DNA of 64,000 nt, from assembly GCF_056746865.1 (NCBI RefSeq), contig NZ_CM163382.1; one strand, 5' to 3'. Below the pieces are notes generated by a model, which was given only the letters and a program-made list of their open reading frames with translations, was not told the DNA's origin and searched no databases. Below are positions 2,884 through 52,773 of this stretch, one piece after another. The translations under genes were made by a program, and so were the position numbers. Within the stretch, counting starts at the first letter, position 1. Each line of letters opens with the position of its first letter.

Positions 2884-3664
2884 TAATCAAACTTCTGGAC
2901 AACCAAAGCCAGAGCCAGAAGAATGTGTGAAAGAGCAAAAAATAACTGATCATTTTAAAATAATGATTGATAAGGCTCGTAAGGCACAAAAGTTGGTTTT
3001 GATAAAAAGAGCAGATGATCTTTTGAGATGGGGAGCACAGGAGGAATATGATTTCAGTAAGATCTTTGGTGTTAAAGGAAATAAGGAGGTTAATATAAGA
3101 AAATATGGACATAATACAGGTAGGCGCATGAATGCTAGATTTCTTATGATGGATGGTGTGAGAAGATTAATGATTATAGCTAATGATTTAACAATGAGCA
3201 GTTTTATAAATTATACAGGTTGTAATGAATTTGCAGCATTCGTCAGCCCAAGTAAGGATATGCCCTATATAATTAACATAGGCGCAAAATTTGAGTATAG
3301 AGATGGCAAAAAAAATCCAGTAACGGGAAAGGATTCTCATGTTGCTACTTTATGTCATGAAATGTCTCATATTCAGTGGTATTATGGGGATAATAAAAAA
3401 GGTGGTATGTGGTCACAGGATTATACAACTACTGATAAATATTCAACGTGCAAAGAGGATGAAGTTTCATATGACGAACATATCCGTATTGCAACTAAAC
3501 TGATCTCTAAACAAAAAGATCAAATATTCGAGAATGCATATAACATAGAAAGATATTTTGAAATAAGATTAATTGAAAGTGAGATAGACTCGATTAATGA
3601 TGAAATATTAAGCAATTCAGTTAAGAAAAAAATAGCGGAATTAGAAAAAGCACTTCTCCATTAA
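2873..3664 (+). CDS. Putative HExxH zinc-metallopeptidase-like protein; candidate VgrG-associated cargo effector
   Basis: ORF overlapping the vgrG stop (ATG at 2873, alternative ATG at 2837); motif ATLCHEMSHIQW (HExxH); abrupt drop to AT-rich composition; no confident family assignment. Confidence 0.5.
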   Translation: MDDNNQTSGQPKPEPEECVKEQKITDHFKIMIDKARKAQKLVLIKRADDLLRWGAQEEYDFSKIFGVKGNKEVNIRKYGHNTGRRMNARFLMMDGVRRLMIIANDLTMSSFINYTGCNEFAAFVSPSKDMPYIINIGAKFEYRDGKKNPVTGKDSHVATLCHEMSHIQWYYGDNKKGGMWSQDYTTTDKYSTCKEDEVSYDEHIRIATKLISKQKDQIFENAYNIERYFEIRLIESEIDSINDEILSNSVKKKIAELEKALLH

Positions 3665-46523: not shown

Positions 46524-48059
46524 TTAGTGTTTCTTGTCATTCATCACAATATAGTGTGGTGAACGTGCACGCGGGTGCAGGAAGAAGTGACCTTTTGGTG
46601 CGTTCTTACTGTTGATTGGCTCCAGAGTGACGCCAGTATTCGCTTTGCCTTTACGATCATGAACAGCATAGAGAATAAAGGGCAGGGCAAGTACCACCAG
46701 GAAACTAACGACCAGTAATTCAACATACATATCGGTAGAGTCACCCTGGATGTTATCCGGCGGCAGGAAGGAAACAATAAACGCCATAATTGAAGTCAGC
46801 AGACCGACAACAGCCACGACCAGTTTCACCCCTTTACCACCAGGGATATTAAATGTGCGTTTTAAGTCAGGATGTTTAAGAACCAACACAATGTAGCCAA
46901 TAAACAGCATGAAATAAGCACACAGATAAATCACCACCGTCAGCGCCAGTGCGATCAGGAAGGACATGTTGTTACCGCCACCGGTATTGGTGAGGATGAT
47001 CAACGCGATAGAAGTAATCACCAGCTGCGAAATGACCAGCGTTACCGGTACGCCATTTTTGTTCATTTTAGCGAATGCCGCTGGCAGCAGGTTTTTCTGC
47101 GCTGTGACATACATCCCGCGAGAAGGACCAACAATCCAGGAGGCGATTTCCGCCAGAACACCCAGCAACAGCAGTGCGGAGATCACGCGAACCGTCCACT
47201 CAATTTCCGGTGCCACATGGGACATCAGAACGGTAAAGGTTTGCATTACACCTGCGGAGAGGTTGATTTCATTACCCGGAATGACCATCGCAATAGACAA
47301 ACCGCCAACAGAGCTTAAGCAGATTGCCGCCACCATCAGCAGTAACATAGCCAGTGGATAGTCGCGCCCTGGATTGCTCATTTCATTGACGTGGGTTGCG
47401 GAAGCTTCAACGCCCATATAACTCAAAATGAAGGCAACAAATACAACCAGGGTGCCCACTTTAGAGAAGTCAGGGAAGAAGGTCTTCGCATCCATTTCGA
47501 TAGCAACGGGGGCACCGGAGTGCAGATAAATAGCCGCTAATGCGATCAAAATAAATGCAGGTAACAGGATACCGGCGAAGAAGCCAACTTTAGCAATTCG
47601 CGCCGTGTATTTCGTGCCACCAAACTGCGTTAATGCCAGCGCCCAAAGAATGATGAGTGCTGCAATAGTTTTGGTAATAGGGTCTTCATTCAGCGCTGGC
47701 CATTTCAGGATGTAGGAGAGTGCCCCTAACACGAAATAGAGCATCGGAATAAAACCAATGGCGATTTGCAGATAGCCAAATGAGATCGCTGCAAATCCCC
47801 ACCTCGGCCCCAGAGTATTTGATACCCAGGCGAAGACACCACCTTCTTCCCAGCCGTCGACGGTGGCCATTTCCGCAGCACAAAGTCCCACGGGAATAAA
47901 CCATAAAATCCCGCCTAATAGCAGGAAGAAGACTAATGAAAAGCCCGATGTTGCGAAGGTAGGGTATTCATAAACAGCCATTACCATCGATGCCGTTATG
48001 GCAAAGAATCCGAGTAATGTGAGCTGCTTAGCTTTACCTGTCTGTACTGATGTAGCCAT
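46524..48059 (-). CDS. gadC: Glutamate:GABA antiporter
   Basis: 511 aa APC-family transporter, [36 protein letters not shown]... Confidence 0.9.
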
Positions 48060-48214: not shown

Positions 48215-49615
48215 TCAGGTATGTTTAAAGCTGTTCTGCTGGGCAATACCCTGCAGTTTCGGGTGATCGCTGAGATATTTCAGGGAGGCTTTGTAGTCTT
48301 CCAGCAACAGTTCAGCAAAGTCCATTTCGAAGCCGCGACGACACATAATGCGCATCACCACGATGTCGGTGGCTTCACCGCCGAGAGTGAAGGCCGGAAC
48401 CTGCCAGCCGCGCAGACGCAGACGTTCAGAGAGGTCGTACAGGGTGTATCCCGGATCTTCACCCTCTTTCAGTTTGAAGCAAACCGCCGGGATGCCTTCG
48501 TCCGGGCGACCGGTACAGATGAACTCATACGGCCCCAGTTTGGCGATTTCATCCGCCAGATAAGCGGCAACCTGGTAAGAGGCGTTCTGTACTTTGGTAT
48601 AGCCTTCACGACCGAGGCGCAGGAATTCATAGTACTGTGCAATTACCTGACCCGCCGGGCGGGAGAAGTTGATGGCGAAAGTCCCAATCTGACCACCGAG
48701 GTAGTCAACGTTGAACACCAGTTCCTGCGGCAGCGCTTCTTCATCACGCCAGATAACCCAGCCGCAGCCCAGCGGAGCCAGACCGAATTTATGGCCTGAA
48801 GCACTGATCGATTTCACACGCGGCAGGCGGAAGTCCCAGACGATATCCGGGGCAACGAACGGTGCCAGGAAGCCACCGCTGGCAGCGTCGATGTGCATGT
48901 CGATGTCGATACCGGTGTCGGCCTGGAATTTATCCAGCGCATCGTGCAGCGGCTGCGGGAACTCATAGTTACCGGTGTAGGTCACGCCAAAAGTCGGCAC
49001 CACACCGATGGTGTTTTCGTCGCAGGCTTCAATCATGCGTTTCGGGTCCATAAACAACTGACCGGGGCGCATAGGGATCTCACGCAGCTCCACATCCCAG
49101 TAGCGGGCGAATTTATGCCAGCAGATTTGCACCGGACCGCACACCAGGTTTGGTTTATCCGTTGGTTTGCCTGCAGCTTCCATACGCTTGCGCCAACGCC
49201 ATTTCATCGCCATCCCGCCGAGCATACAGGCCTCGGAAGAACCAATGGTGTTGGTGCCAACGGCCTGACCATTTTTCGGCGCAGGCGCATGCCACAGATC
49301 GGCAACCATGTTTACGCAACGCAGGTCGATGGCTGCAGATTGCGGATATTCTTCTTTGTCGATCCAGTTTTTGTTAATGGATAAATCCATCAACTTATGG
49401 ACATTTTCGTCGTCCCAGGTCTGGCAGAAAGTGGCCAGGTTCTGACGAGCGTTGCCATCAAGATATAATTCGTCATTGATAATCTGGAATGCGACATCAT
49501 CGCGCATTTCGTGCAGCGGAAATCGTTTTGATTCTGCGATAGTGGAAATAGACTTCGCACCAAAACGTGAATCGAGTAGTTCCGACCTTAAATCCGTTAC
49601 TTGCTTCTTATCCAT
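48215..49615 (-). CDS. gadB: Glutamate decarboxylase beta (PLP-dependent)
   Basis: Translation from [23 protein letters not shown]... gives 466 aa; PLP lysine motif [10 protein letters not shown]. Confidence 0.9.
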
Positions 49616-49694
49616 TTTAAACTCCTTAAAATGATTGGATCGCATTAAAAAAGTAGGATTTATCGATAAAGTAAGCAAGTGCAAAGGACTCGGG

Positions 49695-49714
49695 TTTAAA
49701 TAACAAAATCCTAA
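49695..49714 (-). promoter_or_regulatory. GAD box (GadE binding site) in gadB promoter
   Basis: Minus-strand sequence TTAGGATTTTGTTATTTAAA matches the 20-bp gad box consensus, about 80 nt upstream of the gadB start. Confidence 0.8.
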
Positions 49715-49977
49715 TGTTATTTATCGTGAAATATTACGAGAATAATGTTTTTTCATTAAAAAACAATGCAATAGAGAATTTTTTGGTGGTGGTAAAGTGT
49801 TTTATGTTGTTATTTTTATGCGCTTTCTACGCCTCCTGAATTATCACGTAAAAATCAGTCCTTAAAATATCACTATTAGTACTTGGTTATTATTTTGAAC
49901 GCATTTATAAAATTATTACATAAAAATAGCGAATATTGCTAAAATCCCCCGCCAACGAGGTGTTGACGGGGCTGTTA

Positions 49978-52773
49978 TTATTTTGGCAATAATACTCCGG
50001 TATAGGTATTCACCGGATGAGAAAGATATTGTTTAACGGCAGTGTTAACATTCTCTACCGTCATTTGTTTCAACAATTGCTCCTGCTCAGTCCATGCTGC
50101 AGGATCGTCATATTGAATAAGACTATTTACAATGGTGTTCGCTAATTGTTGAACGCTACGCTGTTGGATATCGAGGCTGCGCTGAACGTTTTGCTGGTAT
50201 TCGTTCAGTTCTTGCTCACTGATCCCTTTAGCCAGACGCTTAACCATCACTTCATTCGCTAACGTTAACAGTTCATCATGTCGTTCCGGTTGACAAGTAA
50301 AAGCCAGCAAATGACTGATATCTTTGGCCTGAGGATCAACCGAGAGGCGAGAAGAAACGCTGTATGCCCCAGAGGCCTGTTCACGAATATTAATGCGTAG
50401 ATCTTTTGCCAGTGCGACGTTAAAAGCATCGAGCGCCATACGCATCGCCAGATTAACCGGTGTCCGGGAATCATAACGCTTCCACTGTGAAACCTGTGCC
50501 ACAGGTTCATTTTGTTCTTTTACAGTAACCGATGCGTTGTCCGTCGCGCGAGTTAATGGTTTACCTGCGGCTAATGGCGAATCAGAGTGTTTGATTGATC
50601 CTAAGTAACGCGTAATTAACGCCACGAGTTTGTCTTCTGCGACATTACCGACAATGACAAACGTGATATCCGCTGGAGATGAAAACAACTTGCGATCGGC
50701 AGCCAGCGCATCTGCGGCAGTAAACTGTGCAATCTGATTTTCTTGCAGTAATTTCGTGCGGTCATCAGCATAGCGCGTCTCATACATCTGCTGGGCGAAT
50801 TTCTCCGCTGGACGCTGGTCGAGTGTTTTCAACGCCTGAATTTGAGCATTTTGTAGCGATGCCCAAATATTATCGTTAATCGTGCTGTGGGTGATTCGCT
50901 GGTTAATCAACTGAAAACCAGGTTCAGGGTTATTAGCCCGCGCGCTAACGGAGAGCAACGTATTCATGCCACTGACTTTACTGCTCATGGTTACCGAGTT
51001 TTCCGCACTCCAGCGTTTCAGGCTGGAAGAGGAGAGTTCACCAACGCCGCTTCCGCTTACTGCTTTATTTGCCAGCGCGATAAGTGATTTTTGCTGCGCA
51101 GGGAAACTTAAATCGCCTTTATTCGATACGGCAGTAATTTGTAGCTTTTGCTCTTCACCCGCGGATTTTGCCAGAATAACCCTGGCACCATTGGAAAGTG
51201 TTAATGATGTCAGATTCTCAGCCAGCGTTTCTTTGCTGCTAATTTCCGCCTGTGGGTCAGCGTCTACTGTTAACGATAAATTTCTGCCTGGGAAGATGTA
51301 AGCCGCCAGCTTTTTGTTGGCGTACTCTTTTTCCAGCGCCAGGATAGCCGCAGGAGACAATGCTTTTTTGGCAGCAACCTCATTGTTTACCATTTGCTCC
51401 CAAAATGCATCCTGGTTCTTTCTTAACTGCTGCCATTTTTCCGCCAGACTTTGCACGGTAATTTGCTGCCACAGACGTTTCGAAAGTTGATATGTCTCTT
51501 CCGGCGACAAGAACGGCGTATTATTTAATGAGCTGGATGCCAGGCGACTGGTCAGCATACGTAAATCACGTTCAGCTTGCTGATCAACCGCATTTTTCAG
51601 CCAGGTGAGGCGGGTAGATTTGACATCATCGAGTTCTTCAGCAGAAAAACCATGCTGATCAATAGTTGCCAACTCTGCCATTAATGCATTCGCAGCATCC
51701 TGCATATTATCGTCTCGTGCATTTACACGGAAAAACAGCGACTGATAATCGGGTGCAATTTTAACGCTGCGCGCAGTGCCGCCAGAAATAGTCTTCAACT
51801 CGCCCGACTGTATGCGTTCCTGCAGACGCTGATTGAACAGCTGAACCAACATGCTCCATTCAGCTTGTTCGATAAAGCTTTGCTCATCGCTCACTTGCAC
51901 CATTGGCAGGCGATAATAGAGTGCGATGCCGTTCACCCGGTTTTCTTTATCCTTAATGATATTAAAGCGCAGGTGGTTTTCGGCTTTTGTCGGCCAGACG
52001 CGATTTTCAGCTGCTTTGTTAGCCGGAAGCTTACTTAAATTGTCCTTTATCAGCGCCAGCGCTTCTTTACTGTCGATATCGCCGACCACGATAAAGGTCA
52101 TATTATTTGGTTGATACCAGCGTTGATAAAATTGGCGCAATTGTGCCGGTGTGACCGTAGCGACAGTATCCATCAGGCCGATAGGTTCACGGTCTAAATT
52201 ACGGGTATTAGCCAGCAGGAAAGGGCGGCGCGCCTGAGAGGTGCGCCATTTCGCATCCTGATGGGCACGCCATTCCTCAGTAATTACGCCACGTTCAGCG
52301 TCTACTTCGAGTTTTTCAAAGGTTGCGGCATTACTCCATTCACTGAAGATTGCCATCACTTGTTGCAGATTTTGTTTCTGCGTAGTCGGCAAACTCACCT
52401 GATACACCGTTTCGTCATAGCTGGTATAGGCATTAACATCGCGACCAAAACGCAGGCCCATTGACTCAAATGTTTCGATGACTTTATTACCCGGCCATGT
52501 TTTTGTGCCGTTAAACATCATATGTTCTACAAAATGAGCCACGCCGCGCTCATTGTCCTCTTCCTGCAATGAACCGGTATGAATTTGCAGCCATAAATTT
52601 ACCTGATCCTTTGGTTGAGCATGCGGATAAATCATATATCGCAAGCCATTGTCCAGTTGCCCGGTAATTAACTTTTCATCCTGCGGTAAGGCGGCGGCAA
52701 TCAGTCGCCCGGGGAGCAACAGAGTTGCCACTAACGTCAGTAAGAAACAGAGGTTTCTCATAATTATCTCCAT
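49978..52773 (-). CDS. pqqL: Periplasmic M16-family zinc peptidase PqqL
   Basis: About 931 aa from MEIIMRNL...; inverted zinc-binding motif HFVEHMMF (HxxEH) near N-terminus; signal peptide. Confidence 0.85.
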   Translation of the reverse strand: MEIIMRNLCFLLTLVATLLLPGRLIAAALPQDEKLITGQLDNGLRYMIYPHAQPKDQVNLWLQIHTGSLQEEDNERGVAHFVEHMMFNGTKTWPGNKVIETFESMGLRFGRDVNAYTSYDETVYQVSLPTTQKQNLQQVMAIFSEWSNAATFEKLEVDAERGVITEEWRAHQDAKWRTSQARRPFLLANTRNLDREPIGLMDTVATVTPAQLRQFYQRWYQPNNMTFIVVGDIDSKEALALIKDNLSKLPANKAAENRVWPTKAENHLRFNIIKDKENRVNGIALYYRLPMVQVSDEQSFIEQAEWSMLVQLFNQRLQERIQSGELKTISGGTARSVKIAPDYQSLFFRVNARDDNMQDAANALMAELATIDQHGFSAEELDDVKSTRLTWLKNAVDQQAERDLRMLTSRLASSSLNNTPFLSPEETYQLSKRLWQQITVQSLAEKWQQLRKNQDAFWEQMVNNEVAAKKALSPAAILALEKEYANKKLAAYIFPGRNLSLTVDADPQAEISSKETLAENLTSLTLSNGARVILAKSAGEEQKLQITAVSNKGDLSFPAQQKSLIALANKAVSGSGVGELSSSSLKRWSAENSVTMSSKVSGMNTLLSVSARANNPEPGFQLINQRITHSTINDNIWASLQNAQIQALKTLDQRPAEKFAQQMYETRYADDRTKLLQENQIAQFTAADALAADRKLFSSPADITFVIVGNVAEDKLVALITRYLGSIKHSDSPLAAGKPLTRATDNASVTVKEQNEPVAQVSQWKRYDSRTPVNLAMRMALDAFNVALAKDLRINIREQASGAYSVSSRLSVDPQAKDISHLLAFTCQPERHDELLTLANEVMVKRLAKGISEQELNEYQQNVQRSLDIQQRSVQQLANTIVNSLIQYDDPAAWTEQEQLLKQMTVENVNTAVKQYLSHPVNTYTGVLLPK

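Follow-up and report, generated by a model that had tools for sequence, protein, structure and literature searches.

Positions 49616-49977 of the window (the whole 64-kb stretch of DNA that was analysed) correspond exactly to the gadB-pqqL intergenic region. The chromosomes of E. coli 118UI and several other strains carry this region at 100% identity, and 5,425 of the 5,426 complete E. coli genomes contain a matching region. The genes around it follow one another on the minus strand as digH-gadC-gadB-pqqL-yddB-yddA-ydeM-ydeN-ydeO-safA-ydeP, the order seen in K-12, and the flanking genes show 98-99% identity to their K-12 counterparts. Measured against K-12, the neighbourhood diverges most in the yddA-ydeM intergenic region (92.4% identity; 56914-57203), safA (94.4%) and the safA-ydeP intergenic region (89.3%; with safA, 61334-61773). 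The genes that matter most for what follows are these:

46524..48059, minus strand: gadC, glutamate:GABA antiporter, second gene of the operon (annotation of an identical genome)
48215..49615, minus strand: gadB, glutamate decarboxylase B, 466 aa (annotation of an identical genome; translation checked)
60498..61259, minus strand: ydeO, AraC-type activator, a 253-aa ORF (ORF and annotation)
61334..61531, minus strand: safA, EvgS-to-PhoQ connector (ORF and annotation)

The promoter in 49616-49977 is followed by gadB as the first gene of its operon, the A of the ATG lying at 49615. At the nucleotide level, gadB is 98.3% identical to K-12 gadB; taken together, the gadB and gadC genes of the window are 98% identical to those of K-12, and the operon downstream of the promoter comprises a decarboxylase and a Glu/GABA antiporter. 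The intergenic region has a GC content of 30.4%, compared with 47.6% for the window, and the minimum among 200-bp windows is 26.5%, which bears out its description as AT-rich in the first-pass annotation. That annotation also placed ydeO and safA 11 kb downstream. Both genes do lie in the same window, 10.8-11.6 kb away at higher coordinates, but 'downstream' is true of the plus strand only; relative to gadB transcription, the two genes are upstream. A scan of 49300-50300 against Rfam, at E values up to 1, found no known RNA element.

The region can be resolved into a core promoter with an adjoining activator site, a distal activator region and a hairpin at the pqqL end. From the gadB start codon outwards, the features are as follows:

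49615-49613, minus strand: gadB start codon ATG (sequence)
49622..49627, minus strand: Shine-Dalgarno sequence AAGGAG of gadB (sequence)
49641..49643, minus strand: inferred gadBC transcription start, with G at 49643 (back-calculated from K-12 tables)
49650..49655, minus strand: -10 hexamer TACTTT (sequence and homology to the K-12 promoter figure in PMC2887963)
49654..49667, minus strand: RcsB box (..CGATAAATCCTA), adjoining the -10 (identical to K-12 gadB; exact boundaries inferred)
49672-49656, minus strand: -35/-10 spacer ACTTTATCGATAAATCC, 17 bp (sequence)
49673..49678, minus strand: -35 hexamer TTGCTT, 16 bp downstream of the GAD box (sequence)
49694-49679, minus strand: spacer between the GAD box and the -35, 16 bp (sequence)
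49695..49714, minus strand (the gadB coding strand): GAD box TTAGGATTTTGTTATTTAAA (exact 20/20 match, unique in the window)
49807..49888, minus strand: distal activator region, orthologous to two adjacent K-12 GadX ChIP-exo sites (peaks centred at -184 and -225; Seo et al.)
49947..49971, minus strand: terminator-like hairpin, a 10-bp G+C-rich stem followed by GAUUUU, directly after the pqqL stop codon

The first-pass annotation had reported a 20-bp site on the gadB coding strand about 80 nt upstream of the start, and an exact TTAGGATTTTGTTATTTAAA is indeed found there, spanning -99 to -80 from the gadB ATG, or roughly -71 to -52 if counted from the inferred start of transcription. The position of that start was obtained from the K-12 literature. 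The 'distance to TSS' values given by Seo et al. for the three gadBC peaks and the gadA peak all place the start at 49643, 28 nt before the ATG, and the statement in PMC2887963 that the box is centred 63 bp upstream would shift the start 1-2 nt further downstream. On this basis, the gadBC 5′ UTR would be approximately 26-28 nt long, and the start can be placed to within about 2 nt. The centre of the GAD box then lies -61.5 to -63.5 from the homology-inferred start, in agreement with the layout published for gadA and gadB, where the -35 follows 16 bp after the box and the centre of the box precedes the start by about 63 bp (PMC2887963). According to the same study, the RcsB box sits directly upstream of the -10, and its left end is C in gadB versus G in gadA.

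The core promoter itself is weak. TTGCTT agrees with TTGACA, and TACTTT with TATAAT, at 3/6 positions each, and because both hexamers match at only 3/6 positions, a sigma-70 consensus scan called no minus-strand promoter in 49500-50100. The weak -10 match fits an activator-dependent promoter. Three short elements, CTTGC, GAT(A/T)AATCCTAC and the Shine-Dalgarno-containing TTAAGGAGTT, are all invariant in 11 Escherichia gadA and gadB promoters.

What acts at the GAD box is taken from the K-12 literature, and TTAGGATTTTGTTATTTAAA is quoted as the published GAD-box sequence in PMC4918353. In footprinting and EMSA experiments on the gadA promoter, the RcsB/GadE heterodimer bound but GadE by itself did not; RcsB and GadE together protected -50 to -76, and MBP-GadE alone protected nothing (PMC2887963). 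In the same work, the M1 mutation of a conserved G in the GAD box abolished both binding and GadE-dependent activation, and with its 20/20 match the box of the window retains that G. That study (PMC2887963) took its footprints on gadA and noted that the boxes are conserved in gadB. A further level of control was also described: at high levels, RcsB binds the box next to the gadA -10 and represses (PMC2887963).

Genome-scale data from K-12 place GadE at the orthologous site. A GadE ChIP-exo peak at gadBC, classed as activating, lies -62.5 from the transcription start (Seo et al. 2015, PMC4918353). Following conversion of the older K-12 coordinates, a step that we checked by extracting the peak sequences, this peak reads TCGTGTTTAAATAACAAAATCCTAATGTTATT, which is the GAD box with 6 nt on either side, and its footprint in the window is 49690-49721. 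Deletion of gadE in K-12 lowers gadB and gadC expression by about 60- to 90-fold, with gadB falling 2^6.4-fold; without GadX, gadB and gadC fall less than 2-fold (PMC4918353).

The ChIP-exo recovery of the site, together with earlier literature that describes GadE binding to the box, might be taken to favour a site for a GadE homodimer alone. We consider this reading improbable: binding in vitro needs RcsB and MBP-GadE alone protects nothing, the left half of the box, TTAGGA, resembles an RcsB half-site, and ChIP does not distinguish between homodimer and heterodimer. Earlier GadE preparations were, moreover, contaminated with RcsB (PMC2887963). The label 'GadE binding site' in the first-pass annotation is therefore correct in pointing to the canonical site but not in naming GadE alone, since per PMC2887963 the binding species is the RcsB-GadE heterodimer; the site should be annotated RcsB-GadE, not GadE.

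Probable silencing by H-NS, which the first-pass annotation had deduced from base composition, has support beyond AT content in work on Shigella flexneri. The S. flexneri gadB regulatory fragment pulled down H-NS and was shifted by H-NS in EMSA (PMC5633597), and H-NS is listed among the additional regulators of gadA and gadBC by Seo et al., who cite strong-evidence RegulonDB entries (PMC4918353). The presence of ydeO in the window also has a regulatory counterpart, as an EvgAS > YdeO > GadE cascade ties ydeO to the gadBC promoter (PMC4222967).

Comparison with K-12 places the window's promoter in a familiar context. The orthologous K-12 locus, gadBp, likewise lies between gadB and pqqL, and its GAD box, -35, spacer, RcsB box, -10, 5′ UTR and Shine-Dalgarno sequence are identical to those of the window; the 99 bp from box to ATG differ by one substitution, at 49693, just 3′ of the box. 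The K-12 gadBC promoter with its GAD box was reportedly described by Castanie-Cornet and Foster (2001), and is treated by Castanie-Cornet et al. (2010, PMC2887963) and Seo et al. (2015, PMC4918353). Comparison with the K-12 gadA promoter, a check that had been proposed for the site, gave a box identical at 20/20 positions and at the same distance from the ATG, with the -35 core, the GATAAATCCTAC element, the -10 and the Shine-Dalgarno sequence common to both promoters. The homology between gadA and gadB starts exactly at the 5′ edge of the box and does not continue upstream of it, and gadA lacks the TTTATCGATAAA palindrome of gadB. Other K-12 targets resemble the site in one half only: the ChIP-exo sites at hdeD, gadE, yhiM, micF and iraP have the left half-site, TTAGGA or TTAAGA, in common with the GAD box, but their right halves diverge, giving 5-10 mismatches to the 20-mer. 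Of the K-12 GadE/RcsB targets compared, gadA and gadB alone have the canonical box in full.

Conservation within E. coli sets the proximal part of the region apart from the distal part. A 30-mer consisting of the GAD box and the 10 nt upstream of it is present without change in 5,364 of 5,426 complete genomes. When eight diverged E. coli alleles, selected to cover the range of identities, are aligned, the GAD box is invariant and variation affects only 2 of 99 proximal columns versus 47 of 233 distal columns. Across one genome per species for 100,044 species (298 Gb), the exact 20-mer occurs 11 times. Eight of these occurrences are in Escherichia, every one of them approximately 80 nt upstream of a gadA- or gadB-type ATG, with two copies each in the E. 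coli-group representatives and one each in E. albertii and E. whittamii. As these loci were retrieved by exact match to the box, the invariance of the box among them is circular, and it is its constant position amid diverged flanks that is informative.

Near-invariance of the box and its proximal surroundings could in principle stem from gene conversion between gadA and gadB, rather than from purifying selection on a regulatory site. Conversion between gadA and gadB is plausible; the paralogues are about 98% identical, and their homology reaches upstream exactly to the box. Yet across Escherichia lineages, gadA-type promoters differ consistently from gadB-type ones in the 16-bp tract between box and -35 and in parts of the 5′ UTR, and each type is conserved within itself, so that the promoters cluster by locus. 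These consistent differences indicate that conversion is not homogenising the tract, and yet the box is identical in both types. Mutation of the box also abolishes activation (PMC2887963). We consider conversion as the cause of the near-invariance very improbable.

The significance of the match was assessed against the composition of the surrounding DNA. No second match to TTAGGATTTTGTTATTTAAA with three or fewer mismatches exists in the 64-kb window, for which shuffled sequences give a mean of 0.02, and the next-best matches among 127,962 window positions have 5 mismatches. In 362 bp of background DNA with the AT-rich composition of this region, exact matches would be expected about 4e-8 times under a zero-order model and 1e-7 times under a first-order model; with an expectation of this size, the GAD box is not a by-product of AT-richness. 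A motif scan, the other check that had been proposed, was carried out with a crude PWM built from the five GadE ChIP-exo sites at hdeD, gadE, yhiM, micF and iraP, leaving out gadA and gadB; the sites were anchored on the common TTAGGA half-site and scored against an AT-rich background. Far from sinking below the level of the AT-rich surroundings, the GAD box comes out top among all 127,962 positions of the window, and likewise among the 12,302 in its AT-rich parts. Its margin over the second-ranked position is small (13.2 vs 12.6 bits), and exact identity and orthology are stronger evidence for the box than the PWM rank.

The idea that the 20-mer matches an AT-rich consensus merely by chance, with no regulatory role, draws on the 30% GC content of the region, the 85% A+T content of the motif and the three exact copies outside Escherichia in 298 Gb, which lie within coding sequence, but it has practically no chance of being right and can be regarded as already refuted, given the minute expectation, the lack of any other window match with fewer than 5 mismatches, the identical position in orthologous and paralogous promoters, the exactness of the box in 99% of E. 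coli genomes while the neighbouring distal DNA varies, and the K-12 ChIP-exo peak that sits on it. Those three copies (exact matches at L018 143-162, L019 6379-6398 and L021 4178-4197 of the retrieved loci) belong to unrelated Lentisphaeria and Bacteroidales MAGs, where the sequence reads LGFCYLK/N; they are coincidences and not regulatory sites, putatively in Sel1/TPR-like repeat contexts.

A published degenerate 15-mer GadE consensus, TTARGAWWWWAAATA, was also considered as a test of the site and rejected. It finds no match to the canonical box at two or fewer mismatches, and its matches in the window are no commoner than chance, which is a weakness of the string and not of the site.

Taking these lines of evidence together, and with no finding to the contrary, we are almost certain that 49616-49977 is the orthologue of the K-12 gadBC promoter region and would be activated via the GAD box by RcsB-GadE, the behaviour of this particular allele being deduced from sequence identity. 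The binders of the box and the transcriptional effects are carried over to this allele from the K-12 and Shigella literature, and would apply to it by analogy.

The mechanism that we propose for this orthologue begins with a weak TTGCTT/TACTTT promoter, which would depend on an activator at the GAD box, centred approximately 62 bp upstream of the start; that activator would be the RcsB-GadE heterodimer. The supply of GadE would be set by the EvgAS > YdeO > GadE cascade as well as by GadX/GadW, RpoS and others. Further upstream, the AT-rich DNA would offer GadX/GadW sites at about -184 and -225 and serve as a substrate for H-NS silencing, and the hairpin after pqqL would separate the gadBC promoter from upstream transcription.

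In the distal region, 49807-49847 and 49848-49888 are the counterparts of the K-12 GadX peaks at -184 and -225, respectively, as located through an alignment without relative indels; the positions of the GadX/GadW sites come only from the ChIP-exo tables of Seo et al. The GadX/GadW motif AKGKCTGWTWTTWWYMYVAK finds its best match of the whole window here, as AGGACTGATTTTTACGTGAT at 49843-49862 on the minus strand, with 2 mismatches; no other match has two or fewer. By our own count from the alignment, the K-12 version of this site has 1 mismatch. The additional mismatch in the window is due to a T-to-A change at 49859, within both the motif match and the -225 peak stretch, which is private to the window allele among the eight alleles. 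Over the distal 263 bp, 19 substitutions and 1 indel separate the window from K-12 (identity about 92%, lower than the 98-99% of the flanking genes), and alleles at least 99% identical to that of the window make up 281 of 5,406 records, or about 5% of complete genomes. We do not describe the distal region as 'hypervariable', as other AT-rich promoter regions nearby have diverged from K-12 as much or more (yddA-ydeM, 92.4%; safA-ydeP, 89.3%).

The contrast between the two parts invites a broader, speculative reading, to which we assign only a small probability. The gadBC control region may be modular in its evolution, combining a box-to-ATG RcsB-GadE module that is frozen across Escherichia with a distal GadX/GadW/H-NS module that is a fast-evolving mosaic, and the rare distal allele of the window might alter the strength or timing of gadBC counter-silencing in its lineage.

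The feature as such is already known: few regulatory elements of acid resistance in E. coli are as well characterised as the gadBC promoter with its GAD box, and an intact box only confirms the standard wiring of glutamate-dependent acid resistance in this strain. What our analysis adds is modest, namely a species-wide count of the box (about 99% exact of complete genomes), the contrast between a frozen proximal and a variable distal part, and the point that RcsB-GadE is the proper label for the site.

Within the core promoter, the -35/-10 spacer of gadB contains a perfect 12-bp palindrome, TTTATCGATAAA, at 49659-49670. The palindrome is found in all five gadB-type promoters of our alignment and is missing from the gadA-type ones. 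It is overlain by two overlapping 9/10 matches, at 49657-49666 (minus strand) and 49663-49672 (plus strand), to TCGATAAATT, the high-affinity nucleation motif of H-NS (Lang et al. 2007, PMC2094087); such matches are enriched throughout the window, with 16 at one mismatch or fewer against 6.9 expected. The palindrome could be a nucleation site for H-NS, or a site for another factor, that sets the regulation of gadB apart from that of gadA.

At the other end of the region, the hairpin that directly follows pqqL folds at -21.3 kcal/mol (z = -4.07; RNA fold) and is kept across E. coli alleles; compared with K-12, the allele of the window carries an additional G behind the stem. A consensus terminator scan did not call the hairpin at 49947-49971, because its T-run is short. 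The sole call that the scan did make, at 49996-50017, was set aside, as it lies inside the pqqL coding sequence and folding favours 49947-49971. The hairpin probably ends pqqL transcription, and would insulate the gadBC promoter from pqqL read-through.

Several minor observations concern the surroundings of the box. A 41-aa ATG ORF at 49714-49839 on the plus strand starts beside the GAD box on the opposite strand; we do not regard it as a gene, since indels disrupt its frame in other alleles of E. coli. Upstream of yddA, the plus strand has two GAD-box-like sites (56988 and 57029) with 5 mismatches each; neither has the GG of TTAGGA, and both are probably chance matches in AT-rich DNA. The same AT-rich yddA upstream region (56935-57048) contains AATGATTATC-type sequences, which may resemble Fur boxes. 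Changes in pqqL and yddB expression appear in supplementary file 3 of Seo et al. (PMC4918353).

Lastly, a natural deletion was observed in E. coli AR_0085 (NZ_CP029741.1; locus L010, about 2990-3090), where a truncated ydeN is joined to the gadB promoter at about -88. The deletion removes pqqL, yddB, yddA and ydeM as well as the TTAGGA half of the GAD box, leaving the junction ...GGTAATTATGTAAACACGAG.
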